Virus record (IMG/VR): IMGVR_UViG_3300021511_000004
Length of the DNA stretch: 64,000 nt
Strand: one strand, 5' to 3'
Source of the DNA: an uncultured virus (IMG/VR IMGVR_UViG_3300021511_000004)
Lineage: Duplodnaviria; Heunggongvirae; Uroviricota; Caudoviricetes
A model generated the notes under the pieces. That model did no database searches, was not told where the DNA came from, and saw only the letters and a program-made list of their open reading frames with translations. Below, one piece after another: positions 8,617 to 60,309 of this stretch. The number at the start of each line of letters is the position of its first letter. Position 1 is the stretch's first letter. A program made the translations under genes and the position numbers.

Positions 8617-9240
8617 GTGAAAGGATATAGTTCAATGAAAAGCGATGGAAGTCCAAGTTTTCTTGCGAGTTCAAAAGAAAATGAATCTGAAAGATTTAAT
8701 TTAGTAATTTTATTTAGTGGTGGTGCCGATAGCATTCTTATGCTACATATGGCAAAATTTATGGGATACAATCCATATTGTGTTATTATTGATTATCAAC
8801 AACTTCATTATGGTGAAGTTACTACCTCATTAGCATTCTTCAAAAGAAATGATACACCATACCGTCTTGTTAAACTTCATGATCTTCAAATTCAAAGTGG
8901 GTTGACTGGAGCAGGTGAGAAAGGTAGATTTGAAGGTGTAAATGAGATGCATGTGCCGTCAAGAAATCTAATGTTTGTTGGGATTGCAACCTCAATTGCA
9001 GAAGATATGGGAGTTGATACTATTTGGATGGGAGCCGATCTCAGTGATTTTGTTAATAAATTTCCAGACTGTATGCAAACATGGTTTGGAGCTGTTAATG
9101 AAGTATTAAAAATCAATGGACCAACCTCCATTAGACTTCAAAGTCCATTAATGGGAATGTTGAAAGAAGATATTCTTGAAATTTTAAAAAATATTGGGGT
9201 TAATGAGGAAAATATATTCAGTGGTTATGGAAACTTATAA
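8617..9240 (+). CDS. queC: 7-cyano-7-deazaguanine synthase QueC-like
   Basis: LFSGGADS, IDYQQLH, VPSRNLMF, FPDC; lacks the C-terminal CxxCxxC Zn motif. Confidence 0.85.
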   Translation: MKGYSSMKSDGSPSFLASSKENESERFNLVILFSGGADSILMLHMAKFMGYNPYCVIIDYQQLHYGEVTTSLAFFKRNDTPYRLVKLHDLQIQSGLTGAGEKGRFEGVNEMHVPSRNLMFVGIATSIAEDMGVDTIWMGADLSDFVNKFPDCMQTWFGAVNEVLKINGPTSIRLQSPLMGMLKEDILEILKNIGVNEENIFSGYGNL

Positions 9241-10003
9241 TGTTAATGAATTACCATTCTGTACTTGTGGATGTGGAAAGCGAGTTTCGAGATCTGGAAA
9301 TAAATATATTAATGGTCATTATTGGAAAGGAAAAATTGGAAGCAGAAAAGGACAAAAATTAACAAAAGAAACTAAAAACAAGATGTCTAAATCTGCTATA
9401 AAAAAATTCCAGGAAAGACCGACACTTAGGAATAAGTGTGGATATCAGAAATTTACTTATAAAAGAATTTCAGAAAAATATAATTTTTTATTTGATTATG
9501 AAGATATAAGAGAGAATAAAAACAAAAAACTTCAGTTTAGATGTAAAGAATGTAAAAAGTGGTTTATACCAAAATCTTCGCAATTGGCTGAAAGAATTAG
9601 AGCAATAAAACAAAATATTAGATTAATACATCATTACTTATATTGTTCAGACGATTGTAAAAAGAATTGTAAATATTATAATCGACATTCAGATCCAGAT
9701 GAATATGAAAAACTTAAACGGTATAGAATACTTGTTTTGAGCGAGACAGATAGAAGTTTTAGAAATCATAAAAATAAGATTGAGAATATTAATTTACTAA
9801 AAAAGAAACAATATCAACTAGATCATAGATATTCAGTTTATCAAGGTTTTTTGGACAAAGTTGATCCCCATATTATTGGTCATTGGAAAAATTTAGAAGT
9901 TTTAACACAAAAAGAAAATAGAAGAAAAAGCTATGATTGTTCAATTACTTTAGATGAATTAAAAGAAATGATCGGAAGGGATTATAATGAAACTAAAATT
10001 TAA
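9194..10003 (+). CDS. Putative homing endonuclease (NUMOD3 + HNH-like)
   Basis: CTCGCG, KETKNKMS, QLDHRYS...NLEVL...ENRRK. Confidence 0.75.
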   Translation: MGLMRKIYSVVMETYNVNELPFCTCGCGKRVSRSGNKYINGHYWKGKIGSRKGQKLTKETKNKMSKSAIKKFQERPTLRNKCGYQKFTYKRISEKYNFLFDYEDIRENKNKKLQFRCKECKKWFIPKSSQLAERIRAIKQNIRLIHHYLYCSDDCKKNCKYYNRHSDPDEYEKLKRYRILVLSETDRSFRNHKNKIENINLLKKKQYQLDHRYSVYQGFLDKVDPHIIGHWKNLEVLTQKENRRKSYDCSITLDELKEMIGRDYNETKI

Positions 10004-16487: not shown

Positions 16488-17456
16488 ATGAAGCAATTAT
16501 GTTATTGGTGTGGTAGAGAAGCAATATATCAATTTAAAAATGGGAAGTGGTGTTGTAGTAAAAGTTATAATTCTTGCCCAGTTTTAAAAGAAAAAAATAG
16601 AACTTCTCATAAAAAGAAAGCAATTTCGATAAAAACTGATAAATTATGTGAATATAATTGTGGAAAAACTGCAAAATTTATTTTACCAAATCAGAAATAT
16701 TGTTGTAGTGATAATAGAAATAAGTGTATAGCTCTTAAAGAGAAAAATAGGTACGGAAAAGTAGGAATTCCTTTACCAGAATATCAAAAGAATAAAATAA
16801 GAGAAAAGGCTACAGGAAGAAAAAGAAGTCTTGACTCAATAAAAAAACAAAGTAATAAAATGAAAGAGTTATGGAGTGATAGAAATAGTATATATAATGA
16901 TCCTATATTTTTGAAATCTCGCGCATCAACATTAGTTCTTAAAGGGGCTTCATTTGATGTTTTTGAACCACAACTAAAATTTTGTGAAGATGTACGCCGA
17001 GATAAAAATGACAAAAGAATTTTAAGTATAAAATGTACATATTGTGGAAAAAGGTATACACCAAAAAAATTAGAAGTGTATAATAGAGTCGCATGTTTAA
17101 AAAATACAGATCCTAATATTAATGCAGAAAGTAGATTTTATTGTTCTCAAGAATGTAAAGGGATGTGCCCAATTTTTAAAAAAATAAGGTGACCAGAAGG
17201 TTTTAGAAAGAAATCAAGAACAGTTGAAGTTGATCCACATCTACGAAAAATGGTTTTTGAAAGAGATGATTGGGAATGTCAAAAATGTGAGAAAAAAGAA
17301 TCTATAGAATGTCACCATATAGATCCAGTATCACAAGAACCAATGTTTTCTAATGATATGGATTCTTGTATAACTCTATGTAAAGAGTGTCATAAGTATA
17401 TACATATGAATATAGAAGGTTGTGGATATAATGAATTAAGATGTGATAGAAAATGA
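16488..17456 (+). CDS. HNH endonuclease interrupted by one in-frame TGA (17190-17192)
   Basis: ORFs 16488-17192 and 17250-17456 share a frame; ERDDWECQKC...CHHID...CITLCKECH. Confidence 0.75.
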
Positions 17457-18851: not shown

Positions 18852-18942
18852 TGGTGGGCCAGAAAGGATTTGAACCTTCGCGGAATCATAGATTCACCGG
18901 GTTAAAAACCCGATACTCTCGACCTGGCTGAGTGACTGGCCC
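18852..18942 (-). tRNA. tRNA-Lys(UUU) with long variable arm
   Basis: Cloverleaf, GGGCCAG/CTGGCCC-ACCA, V-stem GAATC/GATTC. Confidence 0.85.
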
Positions 18943-19791
18943 CATATTACTAAAATTTTTTATTCTGTGTTTTAATTCTTTTAGAGTAATTGAAGAATCA
19001 GTATTCTTTTTGTTATTTTCAGAGTGCTGCATCAATTTACAATTAGCTGGATGTCTTATTAATTCAGAAGGAATTTTATTTTTAAAACCATCAGTAATTG
19101 AAATCATATGATCTATAGAAATTCCATTTAAATTATTTCCTCTATTTTTAGCTTTATACCATCCGTGTTTATTAATTAGATCTAAATCAAATTTGTCTGG
19201 GTAATCGTAAACATTAAAAGTAAACATACAATCTAATTTATATCTTTCATATTTAGAATTTAATTCTTTTTTGTAATCTGGATTATCTTTACGGAATTTA
19301 CCAAAACATCTATGAGAACAAAATTTTTCATTTTTATGACTGATACCACATCTTATACATTTTCTTTTTAGTTTTGGAATACGAGGTATATTTTTTGTTT
19401 TTGGATTATTTATTCTGGTTCTACAACTTAATATGACGGACACTCTTATCTTTTCTTTAGTTTTTGATGAATGTTTCCTTTTTTTATTATTATACGAAGC
19501 AGAACATTTTTTTGAACAGAATATATTATTATTTTTTACTATTTTTTCACAATTTTTACATTTTCTGATATTTTTTGGATTTAAATAACAAGCTCTTTTA
19601 TGTCTTTTAATTGATGTATAACTTATTAATTTTTTGCAATATTCACATACTACTTTTTTGTTTATTTTTTTGTAATCTGGTAAGCCTTTATATCTCATAT
19701 GTGGGCACATTCTAAAATTTTTAGAACAACACCACTTTCCATTTTTAAACTGATATTTTGCTTCTCTCCCACAACCATAATTACATAACAT
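18886..19791 (-). CDS. HNH-like homing endonuclease overlapping tRNA-Lys
   Basis: CNYGCG module; SIDHMIS...HPANCKLM..ENNKK. Confidence 0.8.
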   Translation of the reverse strand: MLCNYGCGREAKYQFKNGKWCCSKNFRMCPHMRYKGLPDYKKINKKVVCEYCKKLISYTSIKRHKRACYLNPKNIRKCKNCEKIVKNNNIFCSKKCSASYNNKKRKHSSKTKEKIRVSVILSCRTRINNPKTKNIPRIPKLKRKCIRCGISHKNEKFCSHRCFGKFRKDNPDYKKELNSKYERYKLDCMFTFNVYDYPDKFDLDLINKHGWYKAKNRGNNLNGISIDHMISITDGFKNKIPSELIRHPANCKLMQHSENNKKNTDSSITLKELKHRIKNFSNMGPVTQPGREYRVFNPVNL

Positions 19792-21453: not shown

Positions 21454-21795
21454 TTATTCGTCCCCTTCCTTTGATATTAGTTCATACCAGAGAGCTTCAC
21501 CTCTTTCAGTATCAGTTTTTATATATTCATGACCATCATAAACTGAACTGCCACCCATCACTTGATTTGGAGTTCCATCTATACACATGGACCCAGCTGG
21601 GTGGGTATCACAAAATAATCCCAATATACCGGGCATTCTTCCTCTTGCTTTTTCAACCCAGTCTATTTTTCCGGTAGCATAACAATATCCACATTTTTCA
21701 TAATAGTGAAACTCTTTACCCTTAAACTTAAATTTAATTATATGTTCTTTTTTCCCTTTGCATTTTTCACATATTTCATAACCTTCATCATTCAT
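21454..21795 (-). CDS. DnaJ-type Zn-finger family protein (CxxCxG..CxxCxxxGKIDWV)
   Basis: Motif shared with five other ORFs in the window. Confidence 0.7.
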   Translation of the reverse strand: MNDEGYEICEKCKGKKEHIIKFKFKGKEFHYYEKCGYCYATGKIDWVEKARGRMPGILGLFCDTHPAGSMCIDGTPNQVMGGSSVYDGHEYIKTDTERGEALWYELISKEGDE

Positions 21796-28227: not shown

Positions 28228-28302
28228 TGGTGGAGGTGAGGGGATTCAAACCCCTGGCAGCCTGATTGCAGGTCAGGAACTCTCTCGCTGAGCTACACCC
28301 CC
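28228..28302 (-). tRNA. tRNA-Ala(UGC)
   Basis: G3:U70, A73, C33. Confidence 0.9.
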
Positions 28303-28887
28303 ATTTTGTTTTTTAAAATTATTTATATAAACTAATATTTTTTCTTCTATTAAATGTTTATATTTAGTATGCATATACCAATGATGATTTAAACAAAGAG
28401 GAATTAAATTATCTGATTTATTATTTTCTCTATTTTCATCAATATGGTGAGCCTGAACTATATTTTCTTCTCCACAAATAAGACATTTATCTCCATGATT
28501 ATCAAAACAAATTTTTCTATAATTTTTTGCTCCTCCATTATTAAAATTCCAGTGTTGATCACCAAGCTTCTTAAAGAGGTTATTTCCACATTTATGAGAA
28601 CATGTTTTTGTATTTTTATAATCTTTGATTGGTTTATTACATACTGGGCATGGAGTTAAATTCTTTGGATTTAAATAACAAAATTCTTCATGCCTTTTAA
28701 TTTGAGCATATTTTTGACTACAGTATTGACATTCATGATATGTATAATTTCTTTCACCCAAACTATTCTTCTTTTTTAATTCTGGGCATTTATTTTTGCT
28801 ATCTTGACAAATCCAATTACCATTTTTCAGCTGATATTTTCCTTCTTGTCCGCATCCATAAATACAAAAGTTCATGATTCTTTCCAC
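28273..28887 (-). CDS. HNH endonuclease overlapping tRNA-Ala
   Basis: CIYGCG module; CLICG..AHHIDENRENN..NLIPLCLNHH. Confidence 0.85.
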   Translation of the reverse strand: MERIMNFCIYGCGQEGKYQLKNGNWICQDSKNKCPELKKKNSLGERNYTYHECQYCSQKYAQIKRHEEFCYLNPKNLTPCPVCNKPIKDYKNTKTCSHKCGNNLFKKLGDQHWNFNNGGAKNYRKICFDNHGDKCLICGEENIVQAHHIDENRENNKSDNLIPLCLNHHWYMHTKYKHLIEEKILVYINNFKKQNGGVAQRESS

Positions 28888-31486: not shown

Positions 31487-31875
31487 TGGTGGAGGCGGTC
31501 GGAGTTGAACCGACGTCCACAAAAGTTCAAATCAAGTATCTACACTCATAGCTAACTTTTAAAATTCTTTAACACCACGTTCAATGACGGAGTTAGCAAA
31601 ACAACAGTGCTAAAGTAGCCCATTTGCTGGTAGTTTTCAAAACATAAATGCCAGTGTACAGAACTAATTGCCCATTTATATTTCTATCTCTCTAGTCGAC
31701 GCCCCATCCCAATCCGAGAGAATGAAAGGGTGGAACGGATTATGCCGCTAGGGCAAGATCTTCGTAATAATCATCTGCGATTATATTTAAGTGGTCATGT
31801 TTTTATACGGAGTCACATACCATCTCCGGAGTGCAACCATCATCTCTTCTTCTATGTCGAAGCCATTTCGCCCCC
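31487..31875 (-). ncRNA. ssrA: tmRNA; tag (A)ADDYYEDLALAA*
   Basis: 5' GGGGGCGAAATGGCTTCGAC, 3' T arm and CGCCTCCACCA with G3:U, internal tag ORF ending LAA. Confidence 0.95.
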
Positions 31876-35667: not shown

Positions 35668-35756
35668 TGGTGAGGGGTGAAGGAATTGAACCTCTCGTCT
35701 CCCTCCCGTACGTTTTATGACACCGAGTTTACAGCCCGGCAATAGGAACACCCCCC
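35668..35756 (-). tRNA. tRNA-Tyr(GUA)-like lacking a D arm
   Basis: Acceptor, anticodon arm CCGGG-CT-GTA-AA-CTCGG, T arm, ACCA; only 10 nt in the D region. Confidence 0.7.
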
Positions 35757-36068
35757 ATAATTCCATGTAACAATCATGCGTAAATATTTGAACTGTTCAG
35801 TATAACTTAAATGTGGATTGAAAAATCCTTTATATATAAAATAGCTTGCACCAGGTACTTCTAGCAAATAATCATCTTTTTGTAATTTACTCATAATTTT
35901 AACTATCTGCAAGGGACCTGTATAATCTTTAACTTTTGTTATCATCTCAATCCAATCCAGTTTCTTTTTTCCATAACATTTAGCACATATTACTTTGTAA
36001 CATCTTTCAGAATAACAAACTAACTCATCCCATCCTTTACCTTGACACCTTGGACACTTTTCTTTCAT
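35715..36068 (-). CDS. DnaJ-type Zn-finger family protein
   Basis: CPRCQGKG...CAKCYGKKKLDWIE; 3' end overlaps the tRNA-Tyr-like gene. Confidence 0.65.
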   Translation of the reverse strand: MKEKCPRCQGKGWDELVCYSERCYKVICAKCYGKKKLDWIEMITKVKDYTGPLQIVKIMSKLQKDDYLLEVPGASYFIYKGFFNPHLSYTEQFKYLRMIVTWNYGGCSYCRAVNSVS

Positions 36069-40151: not shown

Positions 40152-40670
40152 TCATTTGTCTTCCACAAATTCATCACATGAACAATACTTACATCCACAA
40201 CAAGCCATATTTTCATATGTATCAAAATGTCTATAATAAGGATGACCACATTGGCATACACGATCATCTCCATATTTTGGATTATACTGTCGTAATACAT
40301 GTATCTCTTCTATATAAATATATGGTTGTTCTATAGATTTTGGAGTTCGTATCATTACGTTAGGTTCTTTAAACATTATAAAACCAGAAGCTCTAAAAAA
40401 GCTCTTTAAAGCATCTAAATCTCTTTTTCCATAAGGATTTAGTTCATTGTATATTGTAGCATTTAGTTGATCCATATAACGACAGACCTCAATCATTAAC
40501 TCTTTTCCTTCACCTGTGCCTTCAAATTCAGATCTTACTTTTATTCTGTGAAAATAGAATGCTGGTCCTTCTATTTCTTCCATTGGAAATGTTGAGGATA
40601 GTTCTGCTACTGAACCATTTTCTGTCATAATAGAAATTTGATTACTTTTATAACTTGATAAAATTATCAT
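40152..40670 (-). CDS. GNAT acetyltransferase with C-terminal Cys/His Zn module
   Basis: VRSEFEGTGEGKELM, FFRASGF; CQCGHPYYRH. Confidence 0.65.
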   Translation of the reverse strand: MIILSSYKSNQISIMTENGSVAELSSTFPMEEIEGPAFYFHRIKVRSEFEGTGEGKELMIEVCRYMDQLNATIYNELNPYGKRDLDALKSFFRASGFIMFKEPNVMIRTPKSIEQPYIYIEEIHVLRQYNPKYGDDRVCQCGHPYYRHFDTYENMACCGCKYCSCDEFVEDK

Positions 40671-45254: not shown

Positions 45255-45338
45255 TGGTACCCAAGGGGAGACTCGAACTCCCACGTCCGAAAACCTGGAT
45301 CCTAAATCCAGTGACTATACCAATTCGTCTACTCGGGC
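45255..45338 (-). tRNA. tRNA-Leu(UAG)
   Basis: Class II cloverleaf. Confidence 0.93.
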
Positions 45339-45947
45339 AAGATTATATTTCTTAATAACTTTTTTTGCCTTTGTCCAATTTGTACCACCAGGAATAACAT
45401 TAAGTTTTTTAAGAGCCTGATTTATATTTAATTCATGCTCAATAAGAGAATTTTTTAAATCATTTTCTGAAATAACTTCTTTGTTACCTCTACAATAAGT
45501 TTTTGTTTGACTATGGCAGTTTGGACAAAGTAATCTGCTATTACTTCTAGAATTATTACTACGATCGCCATTTATATGATCATAATGGAAATTTAAAGGA
45601 GCGCCGTTCCATATATTTTTACAGCGGCATATATCACATTTATACTCCTGCTCTTTTAGTATAATTCTTTTTCGTTCAGCAAATGGTTTTTGATTAAATG
45701 GTAATTTATCATACTGTTTTTTTAATCTCTTTCTTAGACTTAATGTACATTTTCTAACACCTTTAATTTTATCTTGTCGAGGTATGATAATTTTTCGTAA
45801 TCCAGAAGAATAAACTTTTCTCAATGCATTTGAGTTTTTCTTTTTTAAACATGAACATTGACAAGCAAATTGTGAACAACACCACTTATCTACACTTTTA
45901 AAATAATATTTTGCTTCTTGCCCACAACCATAATTGCAAATGTTCAT
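45315..45947 (-). CDS. HNH endonuclease overlapping tRNA-Leu
   Basis: CNYGCG module; DHINGDRSNN..LLCPNCHSQT. Confidence 0.88.
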   Translation of the reverse strand: MNICNYGCGQEAKYYFKSVDKWCCSQFACQCSCLKKKNSNALRKVYSSGLRKIIIPRQDKIKGVRKCTLSLRKRLKKQYDKLPFNQKPFAERKRIILKEQEYKCDICRCKNIWNGAPLNFHYDHINGDRSNNSRSNSRLLCPNCHSQTKTYCRGNKEVISENDLKNSLIEHELNINQALKKLNVIPGGTNWTKAKKVIKKYNLARVDELV

Positions 45948-50497: not shown

Positions 50498-51229
50498 TTA
50501 TTCTTCGCCTGAAAATGGAGTATTATCTGGCTGTGGAGTATCAGCAATACTTTCTTTGATTTTCTCAGCTAAGTTTGCTGATAGAACTGGATTGTTGGGC
50601 CGGTATTCCTTTTTCTTTTTTTGTGGTTTCGCTTTTTTTGGAATGTTAGAAGTGAATCCAAGTTGTTCACAATGTTTACAAGGAGTCGTTGATTTGATTT
50701 CGTGATCCGGAACGACTTTTGGTATTTTTCCTTTACCACGACATTCAACACATTTTATATAAACTTCTCCTTCACCACCACATGTTTGACAGGTGACATT
50801 GATACCACCTCCACCTTTCCATCTTTTTTGAAATCTACCTGTACCTTTACATTTTCTGCACTTGACTTTAATTTTCTTTTTTCCAGCGCAGATATGGCAG
50901 TTGACTTTTACAGTCTTGCGTTTAAATTTATAAATTTCGCCTGTACCTCTACAAGCAATACAGGTGTTCTCAAATGGCGAGATAATTTCAAAATATCTCT
51001 GTGCTTTCATTTGAGACGATACCAGAAGTTGTATCAATTGATTTTTTGCCTCAATAAAAGGGTCGATTTCATCTAATTCGCCATTTTCTTTTTTAACCCA
51101 ATAGTTTGCCTCAAAACATTTTAAGATATGTTCTGGAGTATAATCAGCGCCAACTCCCAATAATTTTTCAAATTCAAATATAGTTTCGTCGGGTTGGTCT
51201 TGAGTGACAACTTCCTGTTCAATGGGCAT
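50498..51229 (-). CDS. Protein with multiple DnaJ-type CxxCxGxG repeats
   Basis: Six CxxC(xGxG) repeats, no J domain. Confidence 0.75.
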   Translation of the reverse strand: MPIEQEVVTQDQPDETIFEFEKLLGVGADYTPEHILKCFEANYWVKKENGELDEIDPFIEAKNQLIQLLVSSQMKAQRYFEIISPFENTCIACRGTGEIYKFKRKTVKVNCHICAGKKKIKVKCRKCKGTGRFQKRWKGGGGINVTCQTCGGEGEVYIKCVECRGKGKIPKVVPDHEIKSTTPCKHCEQLGFTSNIPKKAKPQKKKKEYRPNNPVLSANLAEKIKESIADTPQPDNTPFSGEE

Positions 51230-51503: not shown

Positions 51504-51848
51504 ATGAATTTACAGGAATATGAAGTCATTTGCAATAAGTGTGATGGCGAAGGAGCTATCCATTCTGATGATCCACAGGGGGCGAGTGTTACATGCCCAA
51601 AATGTGACGGCGAAGGAAAAGTAGACTGGGTATCTAATGCTATGGAAGGTGTATTATCTTTCAATAAATTACATGGAACTTTTACTTCAATTAATCCATG
51701 TGCTGATATAAACTTTCAAGTTGAGGGTAAAGAACTGTTGAGAATTACAAAAGATGCATTTTATATAAAAGGAAGGAAGGTTGTGAATGATGATAAAATA
51801 TATAATGCGTTTGTTGATTTTTTTAAACAGACCGGAACTTATATCTAA
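51504..51848 (+). CDS. DnaJ-type Zn-finger family protein
   Basis: CNKCDGEG...CPKCDGEGKVDWV. Confidence 0.7.
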   Translation: MNLQEYEVICNKCDGEGAIHSDDPQGASVTCPKCDGEGKVDWVSNAMEGVLSFNKLHGTFTSINPCADINFQVEGKELLRITKDAFYIKGRKVVNDDKIYNAFVDFFKQTGTYI

Positions 51849-51860
51849 GGAGGAAAATAT

Positions 51861-54800
51861 TTGATTTCAATAAAAAATTCGTTTGCAAATTGCTCAGTTT
51901 GTGATCTTTTAGATGCACCATCATGTATTCTTGAGACAAATTGTAAAAGTGATATTACTAAGGTTGATGTTGTTTTTATTGCGGAAAATCCTGGAAAAGA
52001 TGAAGTTAAAAAAGGAAGTCCTTTAATAGGAAAAGCAGGAAAAAAGTTCCGAAAATATTTTGAGAGATTCGGAATAAATAAAATGAATTATTTATTAACT
52101 AATGTTGTTTTATGTCAAACAAAGAATCTAGATGGAACAACTGGTAATCCCACTAAAGAAGTCATAGAATTATGTAAAGATAATTGTATGCAAATTATTA
52201 AGGCATGTAATCCTAAATTAGTTGTATTAATGGGAACCAGTCCAATGTCAGCATTCGGAATTGCGAAAGCAGGAATTACAAATATTCATGAAAGATACGA
52301 GCTATTTGATTGGGAAGGATATAAAACTATGATTATTGTACACCCTTCGTTTGTCAATAGAAATCAATCATGGGAACCTAAATTCTCTGAAGCAATGTCT
52401 AGAATCTCTGAGATGTTAGGAGGGAAAAAAATGGAGATAGCAGTTGAATCGAAAGCTAAATCGTTAGGTAAAGGGATTCATAGATATAGAATTCCAGATA
52501 AGTTTTATACTGAGAATTATAGATTAATTAATGTTCAATTTTTAAATAAGACAAGTCAAGTCTTATATATTTTCAGAGATAAAGATAATAATAAAGTATT
52601 TCATAAAGAAAATGATGATTACATTTGTTATCAAGCTCCTAAGGGAGTTGAAACAAGAAAACTTGTACCATATGAAAAATTAAATCAAATATCAATTAAA
52701 TTTAAAGATAGATATAATCTAGATTCAAATATAACATATGAAGGTGATGTAAGAATTGCAACTAAACATGCTATGGATTACTATCATTATAATAAGGGAG
52801 AGTGTAAGAAAACTAAATCTAATATCATGTTCTTTGATATTGAAATTGACACTGGAGACGAACGAGTGTTCCCCAAACCAGAAGATGCAGCATTCCCAAT
52901 TAATATGTTGACAACAATTCATAATGGTGAAAAAATATGTTATGTAATTGATAATAAGACTGAACCGATAATAAAGAGACAAGATGTTGAATATAAAATC
53001 TTTGCTAATGAAAAGAAATTTCTACAAACGTTCATTAAAGATTTTAAAGATACAGCCCCAGACTTTCTTGCTGGGTGGAATTGTATTAGCTTTGACCTTT
53101 CATATATTTATAATAGATTACCTCAGATTGGAATGCAACAGACAAGCATGACATCTTTTGGTGAATTTTATATTGATGCTTCTAAGTTTGTATGCCATAT
53201 ACCTGGAACTGTAGCAGTAGATCAGGATTTCTTATATCGGACATTTACATTTACAAAAATGGAAAATTATAAGTTGGGGTTTATTGCTGATCATGAACTT
53301 GATGGTTATACAAAACTTGATTTGCCTTTACCATTCAATGAAATGTACTGGAAGATGTTGAATAAAACAATTGAATACAACATCAGAGATACAGAATTGC
53401 TTGAGAAATTAGATGAAAAATTAGCTCATATCAATCTTTTGAATGAGTTGAGAATTATTTGTAAAGCCAACTTTGAATCTACTTCATCATTTGGTCAGAT
53501 TGACTCTTTAATGGTTTCGTATGCTAAGAACAAAGGAATAGCATCAAAGAATAGTGATCCTCATATTGTTAAAGAAGAATATCCAGGAGCATTTGTATTT
53601 GAACCAATACCGGGAGTATATGATTGGATTACAGACTTTGACTTTGCATCTCTATATCCAAGTTTAATGATAACATATAATATTGGAGTTAATAGTTTTG
53701 TAATGAAAACTGAAGACCCAAGTATGGGATATGATCTTGTTTATGATAAAGAAAATTTACCAGATGTAATTAATGTTATAATCGACCCTTTATATGAAGC
53801 AAAAGTTGTACAAATGAATACAAAAGAATTGTATAAAATCATACAAAAGAAAGAACTAATTCATACAATCAACGGGTGTTTCTTTCACCCTCATAAGAAA
53901 GAATTTTCTATGTTTGGTGAGGTTGTTAATATGTTAATGACTTCAAGAAAGGGCTATAAAGGAAAGATGTTTGATGCAATTGAAGAAAAAGATAAAGACG
54001 AAGAAACATTTTATTACATAAGACAGTTAGTATATAAGGTGTTGGCAAATACACTATATGGAGTTGTTGCAAATAAAGCATTTAGATTTTTTGATACATC
54101 TTTAGCATCAGCTGTTACTCTTACTGGTCAAGAAGCATTAAAGACTTCAATTGTTCAGGGTGATGCTTATATGAGACATCTTGATACAGGAAGACCATTT
54201 GTTGAACCAACAAAAATTACAAAAGAAGAAATGTTTGCAAATAAAATGCCTAAAAGAAGTAATGAGTATATCATAACTGGAGATACTGATTCAATTTTTT
54301 GTTGTTTTGAAAATTTCAGTGATGATCTATCAGTTGGAAATCTTCATGATTGGTGTGAGCAAATTGAAAACTTTTTAAATGAAGAGAAGATGATTGATGT
54401 AGTTAAAAGTCATAACGTTGATTTGGAGTTTAACAGACTGAAGTTGAAAAATGAATTGGTTATATCACGGGGTTTATTCTTAGCCAAGAAACGTTATGCT
54501 ATTCGAGTTATTAATAATGAAGGCAAAGATGTTGATAAAATTAACTATATGGGTGTTGAAATTAAGAGATCAGATTACCCAAGGAAATCAAAAGAATTTT
54601 TAGTTGAGCTCTTGGACTTATTATTAAAATCAAAGAGAGTTTCATTAAATAAATTGATGGAGTTTGTTAATAGAGAAGAACAAAACTTCATTAAAGCAAT
54701 TTTAGATGGTGATAAGAGTATTGCTCGACCTGTATCATATGGAAAGAAATTAAAAGATTATAAACTTGTTCCACAGGGAGTGAAAGCAATGGAGAATTGG

Positions 54801-55091
54801 AACACGTTAATGTATGATATTCATAAAACTGGCAATAAAGCATATATGTACTGGGTTCAAGGTATTGATCTTGAAAAAGCTCCAAAAGACGTACAAGAAA
54901 AATATCATAAGTTTGTGAAGGATGGAAATAAGTTAGAAGTAATTGCCATTCCAGATGAAGAACCACGGTTACCTAATTTCTTTATTCCAAATAAACAAGC
55001 AGCATTAAAATTTACGTTTAATAATAGGTATGAATTGATGTTAAAACCTTTAGATGTTAAGGTGAAAAGTAAGGAAGTTCTAACTTTCTAA
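51861..55091 (+). CDS. Family B DNA polymerase with N-terminal family-4 uracil-DNA glycosylase domain
   Basis: AENPGKDE..PLIGKAG, HPSF; exonuclease FDIEID, GWNCISFD, YNIRD; polymerase DFASLYPS, KVLANTLYG, GDTDS, KKRY. Confidence 0.93.
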   Translation: MISIKNSFANCSVCDLLDAPSCILETNCKSDITKVDVVFIAENPGKDEVKKGSPLIGKAGKKFRKYFERFGINKMNYLLTNVVLCQTKNLDGTTGNPTKEVIELCKDNCMQIIKACNPKLVVLMGTSPMSAFGIAKAGITNIHERYELFDWEGYKTMIIVHPSFVNRNQSWEPKFSEAMSRISEMLGGKKMEIAVESKAKSLGKGIHRYRIPDKFYTENYRLINVQFLNKTSQVLYIFRDKDNNKVFHKENDDYICYQAPKGVETRKLVPYEKLNQISIKFKDRYNLDSNITYEGDVRIATKHAMDYYHYNKGECKKTKSNIMFFDIEIDTGDERVFPKPEDAAFPINMLTTIHNGEKICYVIDNKTEPIIKRQDVEYKIFANEKKFLQTFIKDFKDTAPDFLAGWNCISFDLSYIYNRLPQIGMQQTSMTSFGEFYIDASKFVCHIPGTVAVDQDFLYRTFTFTKMENYKLGFIADHELDGYTKLDLPLPFNEMYWKMLNKTIEYNIRDTELLEKLDEKLAHINLLNELRIICKANFESTSSFGQIDSLMVSYAKNKGIASKNSDPHIVKEEYPGAFVFEPIPGVYDWITDFDFASLYPSLMITYNIGVNSFVMKTEDPSMGYDLVYDKENLPDVINVIIDPLYEAKVVQMNTKELYKIIQKKELIHTINGCFFHPHKKEFSMFGEVVNMLMTSRKGYKGKMFDAIEEKDKDEETFYYIRQLVYKVLANTLYGVVANKAFRFFDTSLASAVTLTGQEALKTSIVQGDAYMRHLDTGRPFVEPTKITKEEMFANKMPKRSNEYIITGDTDSIFCCFENFSDDLSVGNLHDWCEQIENFLNEEKMIDVVKSHNVDLEFNRLKLKNELVISRGLFLAKKRYAIRVINNEGKDVDKINYMGVEIKRSDYPRKSKEFLVELLDLLLKSKRVSLNKLMEFVNREEQNFIKAILDGDKSIARPVSYGKKLKDYKLVPQGVKAMENWNTLMYDIHKTGNKAYMYWVQGIDLEKAPKDVQEKYHKFVKDGNKLEVIAIPDEEPRLPNFFIPNKQAALKFTFNNRYELMLKPLDVKVKSKEVLTF

Positions 55092-55120: not shown

Positions 55121-55786
55121 ATGGAAGAAGTTAAACTTATTGAGAATTTTGTGAGTTGGCAAGGGGAAGGTCCCGATAGTGGGCAAGCAATGATTATATT
55201 GAGATTTAAAACATGTAATTTGAAATGTCCTTGGTGTGATACCTCTGTTAAAATGAGAATATCAGCTGAGGCTCCATATAAGTTAGAGGATATTCAACAA
55301 AGTATTTATAAAAATAAAGCAGGTATTCTTATAACAGGTGGAGAACCAACAGTGCCAAGGCATATTGATGAAGCAGCAGCATTATTGAATGAACTTCGTT
55401 ATCCAGTTGCTAATGTCGAATCAAATGGATTTCAACTTGAACAACTGATACAGAAAACAAAACATGAAGATAATATCCGCTTTATGTACTCACCTAAATT
55501 TTTTAATCACAAAGATCTTGGTTCTGCAATATCAAAAACAAGAGACCTCATAAATTATTCTAATCTATACATTAAAATTGTTTACGAAGACAAACCAATA
55601 GTGCATGAGTATCTTGACTGGTTATCATCACAAATTAAATTAGATAGAGCAAATAAGGTCTGGATTATGCCGGAAGGTGTTACAAGAGTTGACTTAATTA
55701 AAAATTCCGAAAAAGTGTTTAATGCATGTGAGAAGTACAAATTTAATTTTTCATCAAGAGATCATATTATATTCGGTTTTGTATAA
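55121..55786 (+). CDS. queE: 7-carboxy-7-deazaguanine synthase QueE-like radical SAM protein
   Basis: SWQGEG, CNLKCPWCDT, ITGGEP, ESNG, SPK. Confidence 0.88.
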   Translation: MEEVKLIENFVSWQGEGPDSGQAMIILRFKTCNLKCPWCDTSVKMRISAEAPYKLEDIQQSIYKNKAGILITGGEPTVPRHIDEAAALLNELRYPVANVESNGFQLEQLIQKTKHEDNIRFMYSPKFFNHKDLGSAISKTRDLINYSNLYIKIVYEDKPIVHEYLDWLSSQIKLDRANKVWIMPEGVTRVDLIKNSEKVFNACEKYKFNFSSRDHIIFGFV

Positions 55787-56185: not shown

Positions 56186-56477
56186 GGGAGGATTAATAAT
56201 TCCTGATATAGCTCAAGATCCTCAAGGTTATGGCAAAGTACTTTCAGTTGGGGAAGATGTAAAGATTATCAAAGAAGGTGACGTTCTTGTTTTTCATATG
56301 AGAGCGGGAATGGATTTAATTCTTAATGATAAAGTCCAAAAATGTTTGAAAGCTGAGGAAGTATATGGTATTCTGGAAGATGAAGAACTTATAAGCAGAC
56401 TTGCACCTCTTGAGTTTAAAGCAAAAGAAGAACAGTCAAAAATAGTTAAACCAGGAGGGGGTGTTATAATTGCTTAA
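56127..56477 (+). CDS. groES: Co-chaperonin GroES
   Basis: LADKIVVE, KSEGGLIIPD, GKVLSVG, IKEGDVL. Confidence 0.85.
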   Translation: MINALADKIVVEFLRTTKSEGGLIIPDIAQDPQGYGKVLSVGEDVKIIKEGDVLVFHMRAGMDLILNDKVQKCLKAEEVYGILEDEELISRLAPLEFKAKEEQSKIVKPGGGVIIA

Positions 56478-57270
56478 TCTGCAACATATAGAGGCCACCA
56501 GCTTGAATGATACATGGTTTCAAACATTATTTAAAATGCTTGAAGAAGGTACAGTATTCAAAATTGATCGTGGCTCAAATGCTGGCCAGAAACGCTTAGA
56601 GTTTGATTGGATTACTTTACATATAAACAATCCAGGCGTTCGTCCATTACTACCGCAAATTGAGGATCATTATGGTATTCCTAATCCAGTAAAGGATGAC
56701 TATCTAGATGATTATCTACCATATTTAATGACTGCAGAATTAAAACCAACAGAGTCATATACATATGGTCAAAGGTTGACAGGATATCCAGTTAAATATC
56801 CTTTACAATTATGTAAGGAAGGTCATTGGCCAGAAATTCTTATTCATGAAGTAGAAGAGTTAATTAAACTTGGAATTATATACTCAACAGGATTTTGGCA
56901 TGTAAATCAGATTGAACTTCTTATTTGGACTTATAAAAATAAGGGATTCAGAAATAATCAAATGGTTTTACAGGTAGCTCATCCATCTGATATGTTGCTT
57001 CAAGACCCACCTTGTTTACGCCATATTGATACTCGAATTCAAGATGGGAAGTTACATTTCATGCCGTATTTTCGGAGTTGGGACTTATGGGGCGGATTGC
57101 CTGCAAATCTAGGAGGAATCCAACTCTTAAAAGAATATGTTGCTGCAGAAATTGGAGTTGAAGATGGAGAAATGGTTGCTACAAGTAAGGGACTTCATAT
57201 TTATGATTACTCGTTTGACCTTGCAAAATGTCTAAGAATGCGAGATGATATTCAGTTGAAAGGAGAATAA
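56470..57270 (+). CDS. thyA: Thymidylate synthase family protein
   Basis: YTYGQRL, DPPCL, YFRSWDLWGGLPAN, GLHIYD. Confidence 0.85.
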   Translation: MLNLQHIEATSLNDTWFQTLFKMLEEGTVFKIDRGSNAGQKRLEFDWITLHINNPGVRPLLPQIEDHYGIPNPVKDDYLDDYLPYLMTAELKPTESYTYGQRLTGYPVKYPLQLCKEGHWPEILIHEVEELIKLGIIYSTGFWHVNQIELLIWTYKNKGFRNNQMVLQVAHPSDMLLQDPPCLRHIDTRIQDGKLHFMPYFRSWDLWGGLPANLGGIQLLKEYVAAEIGVEDGEMVATSKGLHIYDYSFDLAKCLRMRDDIQLKGE

Positions 57271-57272
57271 CA

Positions 57273-57800
57273 ATGTCTACTGTTGTTGCAATTGTTGATA
57301 AAGGAAAAGTTTGGATGGGTGCTGATAGTTATGCTACAATGGAGGGTGGACAGAGAAGACGTATAATGTGTAAAAAAATGTTTGTAAATCCTCCATATCT
57401 TATTGGTCATGTTGGTAGTGTTAGAGTAGGTCAAGTTGTCAAACCAGAGTACTTTAAAGCACCTGAAAATATTTTACAATTTCCTGATAACCTAATTAAA
57501 CATTTTAGAAAGAAAGGTTGTTTGGGTATAGACTCAGATGATCAAACTACTACAAATGGATCGAACTTTTTAATAGCTACCCCATATGGTAAATTATATG
57601 AACTTCTTGTAGATTTTCAATTAAATGAAGTTGAAGATTTTACATCTATTGGATCAGGATCTACATTTGCGCTTGGTTCTTTATATACAACAAGAAAAAA
57701 GAAAAATCATAGAAAACGAATAATAACTGCTTTAAAAATAGCAGCTGTTTATGATATGCAAACTGGTCCTCCGTTTATAGTTGAGGAATATTTGGAATGA
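57273..57800 (+). CDS. HslV/proteasome-like Ntn hydrolase
   Basis: MSTVVAI..MGADS, SIGSGSTFALG, TGPPF. Confidence 0.75.
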   Translation: MSTVVAIVDKGKVWMGADSYATMEGGQRRRIMCKKMFVNPPYLIGHVGSVRVGQVVKPEYFKAPENILQFPDNLIKHFRKKGCLGIDSDDQTTTNGSNFLIATPYGKLYELLVDFQLNEVEDFTSIGSGSTFALGSLYTTRKKKNHRKRIITALKIAAVYDMQTGPPFIVEEYLE

Positions 57801-58231
57801 TGGATATTATTGTATCAGAAGATACTATTGTATTAAGAGAAGATGAAATAATTTGTCCTGTGTGTAAAGGTGTGGGGCATACTAAAAAAAGTATATATGT
57901 CTGTGAAAAATGTGATGGTACTGGAAAAGTTGATTGGATTGCCAATGCAATGGTGAAAAAGAAGAAAGGAAGGTCATTTTTAGATGAGATAAATATAAGA
58001 AGGTTAGTTCTACATCTTAAATCTCTAGTCACCGGTCTTCAATTTGAACCAAATGATAAAATTACTTTTGATACTCTAAAAGGAATGATGGAATCTTATC
58101 TAGACACAATGAAGAGCAGAAAAGCAATTTATGACTATAATATCATACAATCTCCTACAAATCATTTAAACATTCATGTAAAACCAAATAGATCAATTGA
58201 AGTAGTTAATATGGAGTTTACTATAGTATAA
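57797..58231 (+). CDS. Zn-finger fused to a tail-sheath C-terminal-like domain
   Basis: CEKCDGTGKVDWI then INIRRL..QFEPND..YL..AIYDY..VKPNRSIEVV. Confidence 0.7.
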   Translation: MMDIIVSEDTIVLREDEIICPVCKGVGHTKKSIYVCEKCDGTGKVDWIANAMVKKKKGRSFLDEINIRRLVLHLKSLVTGLQFEPNDKITFDTLKGMMESYLDTMKSRKAIYDYNIIQSPTNHLNIHVKPNRSIEVVNMEFTIV

Positions 58232-58257
58232 AACTAACTGATAAATGTAGATTATAT

Positions 58258-59709
58258 GTGAAATATTTGGAACAAAGAATAAATAGATTAGGAGAATACA
58301 GAATGGTTAGAAGTGGATATGTACTTGCAGGTTTTGAAACATTAGCGACTATTATGGATTTGTTTATGACTGGGCAACGTGGAAGATTTAATGATAACTT
58401 CACAAGAGCAGAAATCTCAAATTTTCTATCTAGTACATGCTCTGGTTTTTTACATTCATACGGACAGAATTTTGCAAATAAAAAGAAGTATGATAAATAC
58501 AATCAAACTGAAGCAAATATGTTTAAAAAATGTAGAGACATGCAGATTTTTGATAATTGTAATTTTATCGTGGATAGCGGTGGATTTCAAATTTCAACCG
58601 GTAGATTAACAAGAAAAGAATCTGACCTTCTTCATATAATGTATTATGATTTTATTGAAGAACATCATGAAGTATTTGATAAAGCTTTTATTTTGGATAT
58701 TCCTCCGGGACCTGGTTGTGAAATTTTCAAAAATTTCTATGATGTATATAAATTAAATCTTGAATCTTATACTAGAGCAAAAGAACTTCCAGATGAAATA
58801 AGAAAGAAACTTATTTATGTTCATCATTTCAGAACTCCTAGATTGTGGGAAATATATACAAGAATTCTACGAGATTATGATATGTTTTCTGCATTTGAAT
58901 ATCATAGTACTGGTGGTATTGTGGCGAATATGTCAAGCGATATGTCAATACCATGCATTATTTATGTCCTACCATTAATCCCTCTTATTAATGAAGCAAT
59001 GAGAGACAAAAGGAATTATCTAAATTTTCATATTCTCGGAGGTGCCAACTTTAGAGACGTTTTATTTTATGAACTATTTAAAATCACAGTCAAAAAGAAA
59101 CATAATTTTGATCTAAATATAACTTATGATTCATCCGGTCCATATAAGCAAGTAATGCACGCAAGATTTTTACATGCAAAAGATGAACATAATTATATTA
59201 GAAAAATGAGTATTAAAGAAAGCGATTTAGATAAAAGATTTATGGTTGATAAAACAACTATAGATAATTATCAAGACCTTATGAATAAAATGGCAGATAA
59301 ATGGCAGTTTAAACGAATTGACATTGATGGAGTGTATGGAATGTATGAAAATAAATCTGGAATCATGACAAGTACATTTCATGCAGACGTAAAAGCATAT
59401 GCAATTTTATATGCATTGAATATTTATTCTGAAATTCATGATGAAATGAGAGAATTTGCTGAAAAGGTGTATCCAATATATGAAGCTGGTTTACTGGAAC
59501 AATTTTATCATGAATGTTTTGAAATTACAAGAACTATTAATCAAGGAAAACTAACAAAAAAACAAAAGATTAAAGCTCATAGTATTCCAAAATCTCTTGA
59601 TATGTTGGGTGATTTAGATGAAGATTACTGTGAATTTTTGATAAATAAATATTTAGCAAAAGATGAATTTGTTGAGTTAAATGAACGCAAAAAGGTGCTT
59701 ACATTTTAA
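58258..59709 (+). CDS. TGT/DpdA-like guanine transglycosylase
   Basis: IVDSGGFQ, ILDIP, FHILG, TYDSS; QueC and QueE in the same window. Confidence 0.65.
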   Translation: MKYLEQRINRLGEYRMVRSGYVLAGFETLATIMDLFMTGQRGRFNDNFTRAEISNFLSSTCSGFLHSYGQNFANKKKYDKYNQTEANMFKKCRDMQIFDNCNFIVDSGGFQISTGRLTRKESDLLHIMYYDFIEEHHEVFDKAFILDIPPGPGCEIFKNFYDVYKLNLESYTRAKELPDEIRKKLIYVHHFRTPRLWEIYTRILRDYDMFSAFEYHSTGGIVANMSSDMSIPCIIYVLPLIPLINEAMRDKRNYLNFHILGGANFRDVLFYELFKITVKKKHNFDLNITYDSSGPYKQVMHARFLHAKDEHNYIRKMSIKESDLDKRFMVDKTTIDNYQDLMNKMADKWQFKRIDIDGVYGMYENKSGIMTSTFHADVKAYAILYALNIYSEIHDEMREFAEKVYPIYEAGLLEQFYHECFEITRTINQGKLTKKQKIKAHSIPKSLDMLGDLDEDYCEFLINKYLAKDEFVELNERKKVLTF

Positions 59710-59990
59710 TGGAATTAAGATATAATAAATATAAAAAAACCTTATTATCTTTGGATGAAGGTGAGGAATTTTGTAAAACATGTAATGGAGATGGTATAAT
59801 AAGTTCAAAAAGAAGTTACCCTGCTCTTAATATAAGAACTGGTAATCCTTTAGTATGTAAAGATTGTTTGGGTGATGGTAAAATTGATTGGATTGAAAAA
59901 GCAATTGGCAAAAGACCACAAATACCATTTATTAATATGACAATAGAAAGAACAAAACTTGTTCCAAGAATAAGGAAATTTAAAAGGTGA
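59709..59990 (+). CDS. DnaJ-type Zn-finger family protein
   Basis: CKTCNGDG...CKDCLGDGKIDWIE. Confidence 0.7.
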   Translation: MELRYNKYKKTLLSLDEGEEFCKTCNGDGIISSKRSYPALNIRTGNPLVCKDCLGDGKIDWIEKAIGKRPQIPFINMTIERTKLVPRIRKFKR

Positions 59991-60309
59991 AAGATGAACC
60001 ATATCTCAAAGAAGGAGAAGTGATTTGTGATAACTGCAATGGAGATGGAAAACTTTCAATAACTCTTGGCAGTATTACTGTCTGCACTAAATGTTGGGGG
60101 GGGCTGGAACTAGTGGTTTTGCTTTACCATTTGATGCTCCAGCAGGTTTTGATAGAAGTCATGATGATGCGATAGATGCAATGGCTAAGCAACTTGCCGA
60201 TGAAATAGACAAAGAAATCTTAGAATCTATATTAGAGTCAGTGGAACAAACTAATAAATTAATGAAAATAGCAAAAACAGTGATGTATGAAATGGAGGAT
60301 AAAACTTGA
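59987..60309 (+). CDS. Zn-finger family protein, frameshifted at a G8 run
   Basis: CDNCNGDG..CTKCWG then a frame change near 60095-60102. Confidence 0.55.

Follow-up and report, generated by a model that had tools for sequence, protein, structure and literature searches.

The DNA analysed here is a stretch of 64,000 nucleotides from an uncultured virus (IMG/VR record IMGVR_UViG_3300021511_000004), referred to at its full length as the window, and our subject is a family of small genes in it whose products join a zinc-knuckle module, the zinc handle, to one of many different C-terminal tails. Comparisons at the level of sequence homology show that a sizeable share of these tails derive, with divergence, from segments of polymerising virion proteins of the lineage itself, and that the segments copied are the C-terminal subdomain and the N-terminal arm of the tail sheath as well as the N-arm, the E-loop strand and the spine helix of the major capsid protein (MCP). 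A preliminary description of the window had proposed a modular zinc module fused to virion fragments. A survey of relatives and of a library of 1.84 billion proteins bears this out, more widely than had been noted, and the profile comparison of tails with virion proteins, which that description had named beforehand as able to refute it, gave significant matches for the sheath-type and capsid-type tails. As relatives we used IMG/VR contigs, the longest of 277 kb, whose helicases are 32-79% identical to that of the window; the closest of them, G005, has 223 kb, is collinear with it and shares 70-78% nucleotide identity with it in conserved genes.

The strongest case is the gene we call Zn-sheathC (57797-58231, + strand; genes of the family are otherwise named by their first coordinate), which encodes 144 amino acids with the handle at residues ~13-55 and a sheath-like tail at residues 60-144. 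This tail is homologous to the last ~90 residues of the T4-type tail sheath; sequence, profile and fold agree on this, which strongly confirms the earlier assignment to the contractile-sheath C-terminal domain. When the product was compared by tblastn with 50,697 phage records, 857 of them matched (best E 8e-9), with 32-35% identity over residues 56/62-141/144 and no match covering more than 60% of the query; tail sheath is the annotation of 23 of the 25 matches listed, the other two having none. The PHROGs tail-sheath families phrog_10581 (E 2.2e-6) and phrog_23 (E 3e-5) are likewise matched. For Phage_sheath_1C (PF17482), the window protein scores 16.9 bits, under the cut-off of 26.9, and its orthologue L023_7353 lies above it with 27.6 and 29.3 bits. 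A profile of five homologues aligns to residues 546-621 of the 659 in T4 gp18 and to residues 547-641 of the 656 in a Klebsiella phage sheath. Among the 328 open reading frames (ORFs) of G005 with at least 80 amino acids, the top match of the tail is the 650-residue sheath (residues 554-650, E 9e-11), and the tail matches a hidden Markov model (HMM) built from four sheaths, two of the lineage and two T4-like, at E 1.6e-17. In Smith-Waterman comparisons with gp23, gp24 and gp18 of two cultured phages, Zn-sheathC against gp18 was significant (z 21-24), and none of the other window tails exceeded z 3.2, most staying below 2.3. The lineage sheath ends in ..TRTVEQIELNFFII and the Zn-sheathC tail in ..NRSIEVVNMEFTIV, so that the copy extends to the true C-terminus.

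The predicted fold points the same way. AlphaFold2 models the tail with a pLDDT of 80-92, with helices at residues 61-79 and 88-107 and strands at 111-118, 123-130 and 137-142, and its ten best Foldseek matches in the PDB are, without exception, tail sheath proteins, with E values of only 0.03-0.18 and probabilities of 0.57-1.00 (0.99-1.00 in seven of the ten). A complex prediction for Zn-sheathC with the G005 sheath scored 0.49 against 0.00 for the best control, with at least 86% of contacts shared between runs and a partner pLDDT of at least 62. Of 157 solved complexes, 116 reach the mark for a pass, as do 2 of 215 mismatched pairs, and at scores up to 0.60 just 18 of the 157 solved complexes passed, together with both passing mismatches. 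Since sheath-sheath complexes are among the solved structures, the pass may reflect memory or mere likeness, and as modelled it lends weak support to a binding of Zn-sheathC to the sheath.

Four metagenome homologues of Zn-sheathC (135-145 amino acids, 68-74% identity) are equally conserved in handle and tail, and three of the homologues (P0001-P0003) carry the precomputed Pfam assignment PF27659.1. More distant orthologues lie at L002 37-459, L014 7409-7804, L023 7353-7829, L024 7801-8208 and L018 7820-8143, and locus L003 has the gene order of the window, with a thymidylate-synthase-like gene, an HslV-like gene and Zn-sheathC. A search for a longer fused form found none, which is weak evidence. 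Five of the seven metagenome loci found (L004-L008) were spurious high-GC matches to words such as QFEPNDK and were dropped. We also considered Zn-sheathC as a functional sheath subunit and rejected this, given that only residues 60-144 of its 144 match and the real sheath of the relatives has 650 residues.

How far this extends beyond one gene was seen with a handle profile of 56 sequences, which retrieved 6740 representatives from the library at E<=0.001; at E<=1e-10 their number was 606. Among the best 150 of the 6740, 108 are small proteins with a single handle and a variable tail; the other 42 are multi-knuckle proteins and were set aside. In 22 helicase-anchored loci of relatives and in L002 there are 67 ORFs with the motif, a count that includes duplicate loci, six large multi-knuckle proteins and three L002 ORFs, and the small ones are mostly clustered directly upstream of the helicase. 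We pooled 157 tails of at least 15 residues, 57 from the window and loci and 100 from the library, and compared them with capsid and sheath HMMs, using ten shuffles per tail as a control. The capsid HMM was matched by 23 tails at E<=0.1 against none of the 1570 shuffles, and by 35 at E<=1 against 1.1 per shuffled set. For the sheath HMM, nine tails matched at E<=0.1 (0.2 per shuffled set) and five at E<=0.01 (shuffles: none).

These matches are confined to five places, namely MCP 76-123, 252-279 and 264-324 and sheath 562-667 and 4-24. MCP 76-123 is the start of the mature protein, and a tail of this type, that of L041_1525, passes Pfam Gp23 with 29.1 bits (cut-off 24.4); MCP 252-279 is the strand just ahead of the spine-helix segment. 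From general knowledge, we take the three MCP segments to be the N-arm, the E-loop and the spine helix of the HK97 fold. The tails of the sheath 4-24 type (..PGVY.KEID.S..) are individually weak (E 0.05-0.075) and form a cluster of eight. According to PMC10457771, the N-terminus, the C-terminus and strands belonging to the C-terminal domain (a hairpin) of the sheath form a four-stranded 'handshake' sheet between subunits. When the tails were searched against the 328 G005 ORFs, those of the sheath and capsid types had the sheath and the MCP as their top matches, and hardly any other ORF was matched significantly. A single-sequence scan of PHROGs assigned three of the 108 library tails (P0058, P0142 and P0148) to 'major head protein' at E<=0.001 and otherwise returned handle-only families; since only these three matched, such a scan is much less sensitive than the HMM. 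No family member is itself a capsid protein, because every Gp23 match covers fewer than 60 of the 376 model positions.

A further tail type is that of the capsid spine helix, which in the window is represented by a gene whose frame is broken. The ORF at 59987-60175 (+, 62 amino acids) and that at 60091-60309 (+, 72 amino acids) are, as read from the sequence, one handle-plus-tail gene. In the former, the second knuckle CTKCWGG enters a run of eight G residues (G8, 60096-60103, +) and is followed by out-of-frame sequence; the latter, its 3' part, lies at -1 relative to the former and continues GAGTSGF..HDDAIDAMAKQLADEIDKEILESIL.., which is of the spine-helix type. A -1 shift or an extra G at the G8 run joins the handle to the 60091 frame and gives CTKCWGGAGTSGF.... 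The slippery sequence G_GGG_GGG is present within 60096-60103, and the 60091 frame could be reached by -1 slippage on it; the RNA structure predicted downstream of G8 is no better than in shuffles (z -0.25). Relatives carry a single open frame for which no shift is required (P0007; A4). Contigs of three runs, possibly the window's own source, keep G8, and in one independent run the contig breaks at 60075-60140. The 59987 handle resembles another paralogue subtype (L002 469-720 and L014 7153-7395) and has no GKxDW strand, which makes the gene look like a recombinant, and from its sequence we infer a chimera of two neighbouring paralogues.

The preliminary description had likened the 60091 tail to the Gp23-type capsid protein. 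Taken alone, the tail does not reach significance (phrog_138 E 0.072; MCP HMM E 0.12 at MCP 297-324; E 0.19 against the G005 MCP, tied with one other ORF), it has no capsid match by tblastn, and neither it nor the 59709 tail has a Pfam match to Gp23 at E<=0.1. Through its orthologous family, the likeness does stand. By sequence, the tail belongs firmly to the spine-type family, clustering with 29 other tails (BLASTP E down to 2.9e-10, and 3.7e-4 for L023_9278), and P0007, a relative of 118 amino acids, is 74% identical to the 60091 product and has an intact handle with GKVDWLENILGK ahead of the tail. An intact spine-type handle-plus-tail gene is found directly upstream of the helicase in 12 distinct loci of relatives. 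In an hhalign comparison, 13 members of the family aligned to six capsid proteins at MCP 270-318 with 87% probability (E 3.7e-6), and 11 of the 13 matched the G005 MCP (~262-316) at E<=1 (E 1e-6 to 0.63, among 328 ORFs); the exceptions were L012 and L013 without a match, and L017 had another ORF as its top match. For Pfam Gp23 (PF07068, cut-off 24.4), L023_9278 scores 34.3 bits at model positions 149-194 and L015_9623 stays below with 20.8. L023_9278 also matches phrog_138 (E 1e-8) and, by tblastn, 545 records of cultured phages at E values of only 9e-4 to 0.1, with a capsid or head-vertex annotation in 28 of the 30 matches listed and none in the other two. The long ORF of this gene (L023 9278-9697) furthermore has, at 9278-9400, an N-terminal extension (..GGVTLWGQKTL..) that matches positions 782-811 of the tail-sheath family phrog_10581 (E 0.0047) and is possibly a relic of another sheath fragment beside the handle.

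The neighbouring gene 59709 (59709-59990, +) encodes a handle protein of 93 amino acids with a short basic tail, ..IPFINMTIERTKLVPRIRKFKR, for which a Gp23 segment had likewise been claimed. Its 25-residue tail alone matches nothing, neither among the G005 ORFs nor with the capsid and sheath HMMs. The library protein P0083 is 43% identical to 59709 over 90 amino acids including the tail (E 1e-24), and its own longer tail (..IDIEVEELTLKKRRRQLKGEWTIE) matches MCP 252-279 (BLASTP E 0.005 among 328 ORFs; HMM E 4.9e-4), as does that of P0062 with E 0.025. Because P0083 links the two, a capsid resemblance of 59709 is plausible by transitivity, and the claim survives through this one intermediate; that the tail is a shortened, degenerate form of the E-loop type is weakly supported by these alignments.

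For the remaining genes of the window, a virion origin of the tail was not seen. The tails of 51504 (51504-51848, +, 114 amino acids), 35715 (35715-36068, -, 117 amino acids) and 21454 (21454-21795, -, 113 amino acids) have no virion match in Pfam or PHROGs, match no G005 ORF below E 0.28 and have no relative among the 157 tails; in the Atlas, that of 51504 found only small hypothetical viral proteins with scores below 0.9. The fibre motifs formerly seen in the tails of 51504 and 21454 thus find no counterpart in these searches. Among the pooled tails, a recurrent motif PPxNPxxGxxYxDxxxNxLxxYxGxxW (a cluster of 15 tails) is presumably typical of tail fibres; a fibre assignment was rejected, as these tails had no match among the G005 ORFs, reached at best E 0.2 in cultured phages and matched only PHROGs of unknown function. 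Collagen-like Gly-X-Y tails score 24.4 bits with Pfam Collagen, under its cut-off, several other recurrent types are basic or of low complexity, and 41 of the 157 tails are singletons. L041 and L023 are parts of one record, in which a second cluster, with three Zn-handle genes (L041 955-1857, -), is separated from the helicase cluster by ~16 kb and includes one capsid N-arm tail (L041 1522-1857). By eye, the L041_958 tail (..IYAPYMPVTIIP..) is similar to the C-terminal YSPYVP region of the capsid, and was put aside with a support of only E 0.29; H51, a match in Ralstonia phage RsoM2USA, is an unannotated protein of 411 amino acids and has no zinc fusion.

The handle itself is the constant part of the family. 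The preliminary description had six small ORFs sharing the motif CxxCxGxG...CxxCxGxGKxDW(I/V); all six are present at the positions given there, the exact pattern is found in three (57797, 59709 and 51504), a relaxed one in two (35715, CAKCYGKKKLDWI; 21454, CEKCKGKK...CGYCYATGKIDWV), and in 59987 the motif is cut off by the frame change. The six-frame translation of the window has 12 CxxCxGxG sites, whereas 100 block shuffles gave 0.08 on average and never more than 1. Four of the 12 fall in a seventh gene (50498-51229, -), which encodes a multi-knuckle protein of 243 amino acids with at least four such knuckles that passes DnaJ_CXXCXGXG (PF00684) with 36.7 bits, has no J-domain, and has counterparts of 197-231 amino acids in L011, L015, L017 and L027, where the relative position is the same. 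The small ORFs have two repeats of this cysteine-rich domain, not four, and score 14.2-24.9 bits, under the cut-off of 32.7. No Zn ORF of the window or the relatives has a J-domain (HPD motif) match in Pfam. With the relatives, the handle consensus is L.EGE..C..C.G.G...C.KC.G.GKLDWIEN..GK, and its profile matches the zinc domain of E. coli DnaJ (1EXK, E 1e-10), Anti-TRAP (3LCZ, E 4e-4) and BSD2 (6EKB, E 4e-3). As it has two knuckles, we expect one zinc centre per handle; the handle is thus a single predicted zinc centre of the DnaJ / Anti-TRAP type, followed by a family-specific GK(L/V)DW(I/V)EN..GK strand. For Anti-TRAP PF15777 (cut-off 32 bits), 51504 scores above with 36.2, 59709 (18.4), 59987 (16.1) and the relatives (16-28) score below, and 57797, 21454 and 35715 have no listed match. 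Handle matches in PHROGs include the families 8027, 9961 and 3931, which are labelled there as of unknown function.

Taken together with the relatives, the Zn-handle genes are shown to form a large family of small phage proteins that evolves by birth and death: upstream of the helicase, a ~3-kb cluster comprises one to six paralogues, further clusters lie elsewhere (as in L041), tails are swapped between handle subtypes, and close relatives vary in gene content. They lie outside the structural gene cluster, as had been stated at the outset: scans of 91 ORFs and, separately, of 16 against PHROGs detected no virion structural gene in the window, and in the relatives the distance from the helicase to the true capsid gene downstream is ~9 kb, with the intact true sheath gene far away. 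The spine-type gene is kept at one locus across a helicase divergence down to 45% identity. Rough Nei-Gojobori estimates of dN/dS, with dS about 1 or saturated, are 0.26-0.38 for spine-type tails (three pairs), 0.15-0.60 for handles and 0.10-0.14 for the helicase, according to which the tails are constrained yet fast-evolving.

As to function, the sequence evidence only narrows the choice to something that would exploit native assembly contacts. The explanation we favour, with a probability of roughly 35%, is that the Zn-handle proteins are non-essential assembly modulators, which would restrain off-pathway polymerisation (polysheath-like or polyhead-like products) until they are outcompeted by the proper template. 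The tail would dock by native-like contacts on the surface that normally receives the copied segment, which for Zn-sheathC would be the beta-sheet 'handshake' linking sheath subunits, and subunits not yet assembled would thereby be capped or held. An activity common to the family would come from the zinc handle, be it chaperone-like holding as in the zinc domains of BSD2 or DnaJ, oligomerisation or docking to a common partner. We prefer this reading because the handle has a chaperone ancestry and because the spine-type gene has long been kept at one locus. Several observations weigh against it. G005 lacks the 51504 and 57797 genes, and its counterpart of 59987/60091 has decayed into pieces; in the window, the latter gene is frame-broken. 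Orthologues of 59709 in L011, L012, L013 and P0086 end right after the handle, and 125 of the 157 tails match neither capsid nor sheath at E<=0.1, among them those of three of the window's six ORFs. The dN/dS of sheathC tails is 0.45-1.04 (six pairs), a weak constraint, and the Zn-sheathC handle is modelled poorly (pLDDT 40-60). Furthermore, early expression of the Zn-handle genes may be inferred, from operon position only, and the family's turnover is explained by conflict genes no less well than by chaperones.

Framed more broadly, it is a tentative proposition that the clade keeps a diversifying toolkit of 'interface mimics', in which one handle would display, with a single element in each gene, contact strands and helices of sheath and capsid (handshake arms, N-arm, E-loop and spine helix) and would cap, time or sabotage polymerisation. 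The targets of such mimics could be the phage's own virion proteins, co-infecting rivals or satellites, or structure-sensing host immunity.

The most serious rival to assembly modulation, itself no better than a tentative explanation, is that these are conflict genes, whose tails would serve as decoys or blockers of host sensors for capsid or sheath, or as dominant-negative poisons of co-infecting phages or satellites, the handle being a stable, perhaps oligomeric display scaffold. The birth-and-death dynamics, the swapped tails, the loss and decay in G005 and the frame-broken window copy would all be expected of such genes, as would the fast evolution, with a tail dN/dS of up to ~1, and the location among replication and nucleotide-metabolism genes, away from the virion genes. 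The capsid N-arm-type tails, moreover, would cover the gp23 region Gol, the trigger of the Lit exclusion protease. However, a copied sensor ligand would be expected to trigger the sensor, not to block it, and a poison of conserved contacts would also strike the phage's own capsid protein, which is 76-88% identical across the clade. The retention of the spine-type gene at one locus, in 12 distinct loci, speaks for a stable function, and no defence-related family turned up among the matches of the Zn-handle ORFs, though none was sought.

Less probable, and in our view rather doubtful, is that the zinc handle alone works and the tails are neutral debris, fragments of neighbouring or ectopic genes that a proliferating family of small genes captured by accident through illegitimate recombination and that slowly decay. 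This would account for the handle-only orthologues, for the singletons and for tails that are low-complexity Gly/Ser runs, and it is consistent with a sheathC tail dN/dS near 0.5-1, with the chimeric appearance of 59987/60091 and with the stray sheath-like stretch upstream of the handle in L023 (E 0.0047). It does not sit well with the recurrence of the same tail types as open frames in very diverged genomes, with conserved core fold residues, with the compact sheath-like subdomain predicted for the Zn-sheathC tail (pLDDT 80-92) or with the dN/dS of 0.26-0.38 in spine-type tails; and the captures come repeatedly from contact elements of two proteins, not from random genes.

T4 sends internal proteins to the prohead via short peptides, and the tails, which copy segments that insert into neighbouring subunits, might similarly be virion address tags that co-assemble with sheath, capsid or scaffold and carry the handle along as a decoration or an ejected protein. 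We consider this improbable, since a zinc knuckle of ~45 residues would be an odd cargo and the genes lie outside the virion modules and are dispensable in close relatives. Most improbable of all is that the proteins are nucleic-acid-binding or RNA-polymerase-binding regulators like the Q-type zinc proteins, with irrelevant tails: handles do match phrog_6060 and phrog_127, 'anti-termination protein Q-like' (E 1e-3 to 5e-7), but these matches span the CxxC knuckles only, those to the DnaJ cysteine-rich domain are stronger, and the virion-derived tails would be left unexplained.

With respect to known systems, the handle shares its zinc-binding CxxCxGxG knuckles with the cysteine-rich domain of DnaJ, with BSD2 and with Anti-TRAP. 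DnaJ, however, has four knuckles and a J-domain, whereas the handle proteins have two knuckles and no J-domain, and none of the three has the GKLDWIEN..GK extension or the fused client-like virion fragments that characterise the handle family. BSD2 holds a Rubisco assembly intermediate. It is described in PMC7217058, which cites Aigner 2017, as a small zinc protein required in Rubisco biogenesis, and a DnaJ motif within a DNA polymerase is the subject of PMC9038755. With gp18, Zn-sheathC shares tail sequence and predicted fold, its residues 60-144 aligning to gp18 546-646 of 659 as well as to the final 97 residues of the lineage's sheath, a region with the handshake hairpin and the terminal strand, but it amounts to ~14% of a sheath protein, the zinc handle replaces the N-terminal arm and the other domains, and it is encoded far from the sheath gene. 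In relation to the gp23-type MCP (PF07068), the tails of the family are pieces of 20-55 residues without the HK97 fold, and the window copies are weak (60091) or degenerate (59709). Judged by sequence, the Zn-handle proteins are hence neither DnaJ nor sheath nor capsid proteins.

The head vertex assembly chaperone gp40 of T4 resembles the family in position, being a small gene directly upstream of the helicase gene 41, and in size (114 amino acids), but has no zinc knuckles; the word 'KLDWV' common to gp40 and the handle family is probably due to chance. Homology to gp40 was rejected, with an hhalign probability of 0.6% and with phrog_999 matched by T4 gp40 only and by none of 28 family members. 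The CpmB protein of the SaPI satellites copies the capsid-binding end of the scaffold, and the idea is shared, namely that assembly is redirected by a small protein with a contact segment taken from a structural one. CpmB is, however, a satellite gene, whereas the Zn-handle genes reside in the phage itself, are multiple, have a common zinc module and sample several proteins. In the literature, as judged from titles and abstracts, we found no description of zinc-knuckle proteins fused to virion-protein fragments.

If the tails use native contacts, the family would constitute a library, provided by nature, of peptides that inhibit sheath and capsid polymerisation or hold it back, and each tail would point to a contact whose mimicry has been favoured in evolution. 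The family would then add a new layer of control or conflict to phage assembly, offer an experimental handle on polysheaths and polyheads, and perhaps account for a fraction of the small zinc-ribbon ORFs of large phages that have no assigned function. Should the idea of an interface-mimic toolkit be true, regulators or weapons of this kind, acting on assembly at the protein level and recycled from pieces of their targets, would form a class of their own that is new. Even if the tails are neutral, the family shows how phage genomes copy and retain pieces of essential virion genes, which can lead astray both annotation and surveys that use gp23 or sheath as marker genes.

The window in which these genes are embedded is AT-rich (about 31% GC, with values of about 29-37%) and is, by its gene content, part of a distant T4-like jumbo phage: Pfam and PHROGs assign to it genes of replication and nucleotide metabolism of a distant T4-like phage. 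The cultured-phage collection contains nothing similar to it at the DNA level. It encodes a DnaB-like helicase, a Cpn10 and a family-B DNA polymerase of 1076 amino acids (51861-55091, +) that is 26-29% identical to cyanomyovirus gp43. The N-terminus of this polymerase carries a domain of the uracil-DNA-glycosylase superfamily (residues 34-174, 64.5 bits), which precedes the exonuclease and polymerase domains. In a thymidylate-synthase-family protein (56470-57270, +), the Pfam match (43 bits) is confined to the C-terminal half of the model, and this protein could be a dCMP/dUMP-modifying enzyme instead of ThyA. It is followed by a peptidase of the HslV family (57273-57800, +; phrog_1040, E 7.7e-18), the stop of which overlaps the start of Zn-sheathC (ATGA); from this arrangement, a functional link of the protease-adaptor kind between the two is conceivable.

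QueC-like (8617-9240, +), QueE-like (55121-55786, +) and DpdA-like genes co-occur in the window, which suggests, from gene content, a pathway of 7-deazaguanine DNA modification in this phage; the DpdA-like protein (58258-59709, +, 483 amino acids) is a weak queuine tRNA-ribosyltransferase match (phrog_887, E 3.8e-7). Its gene has Zn-handle genes on both sides. The T4-type late-promoter word TATAAATA occurs 17 times in the window against 14.6 expected, which is no enrichment, and is absent from the + strand beyond position 40320. ARAGORN finds 24 tRNA genes scattered over a minus-strand block (18852-46540, -), an unusually large translation kit for a phage, together with a tmRNA gene (31487-31875, -) with the tag ADDYYEDLALAA. 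Finally, four paralogous ORFs (16488-17192, +; 18886-19791, -; 28273-28887, -; 45315-45947, -) have a common Cys-rich N-terminus (..C.YGCG.EAKYQ.KNG.WCCS..), and as HNH endonuclease domains are found in at least two of the four, they are probably a family of homing endonucleases.

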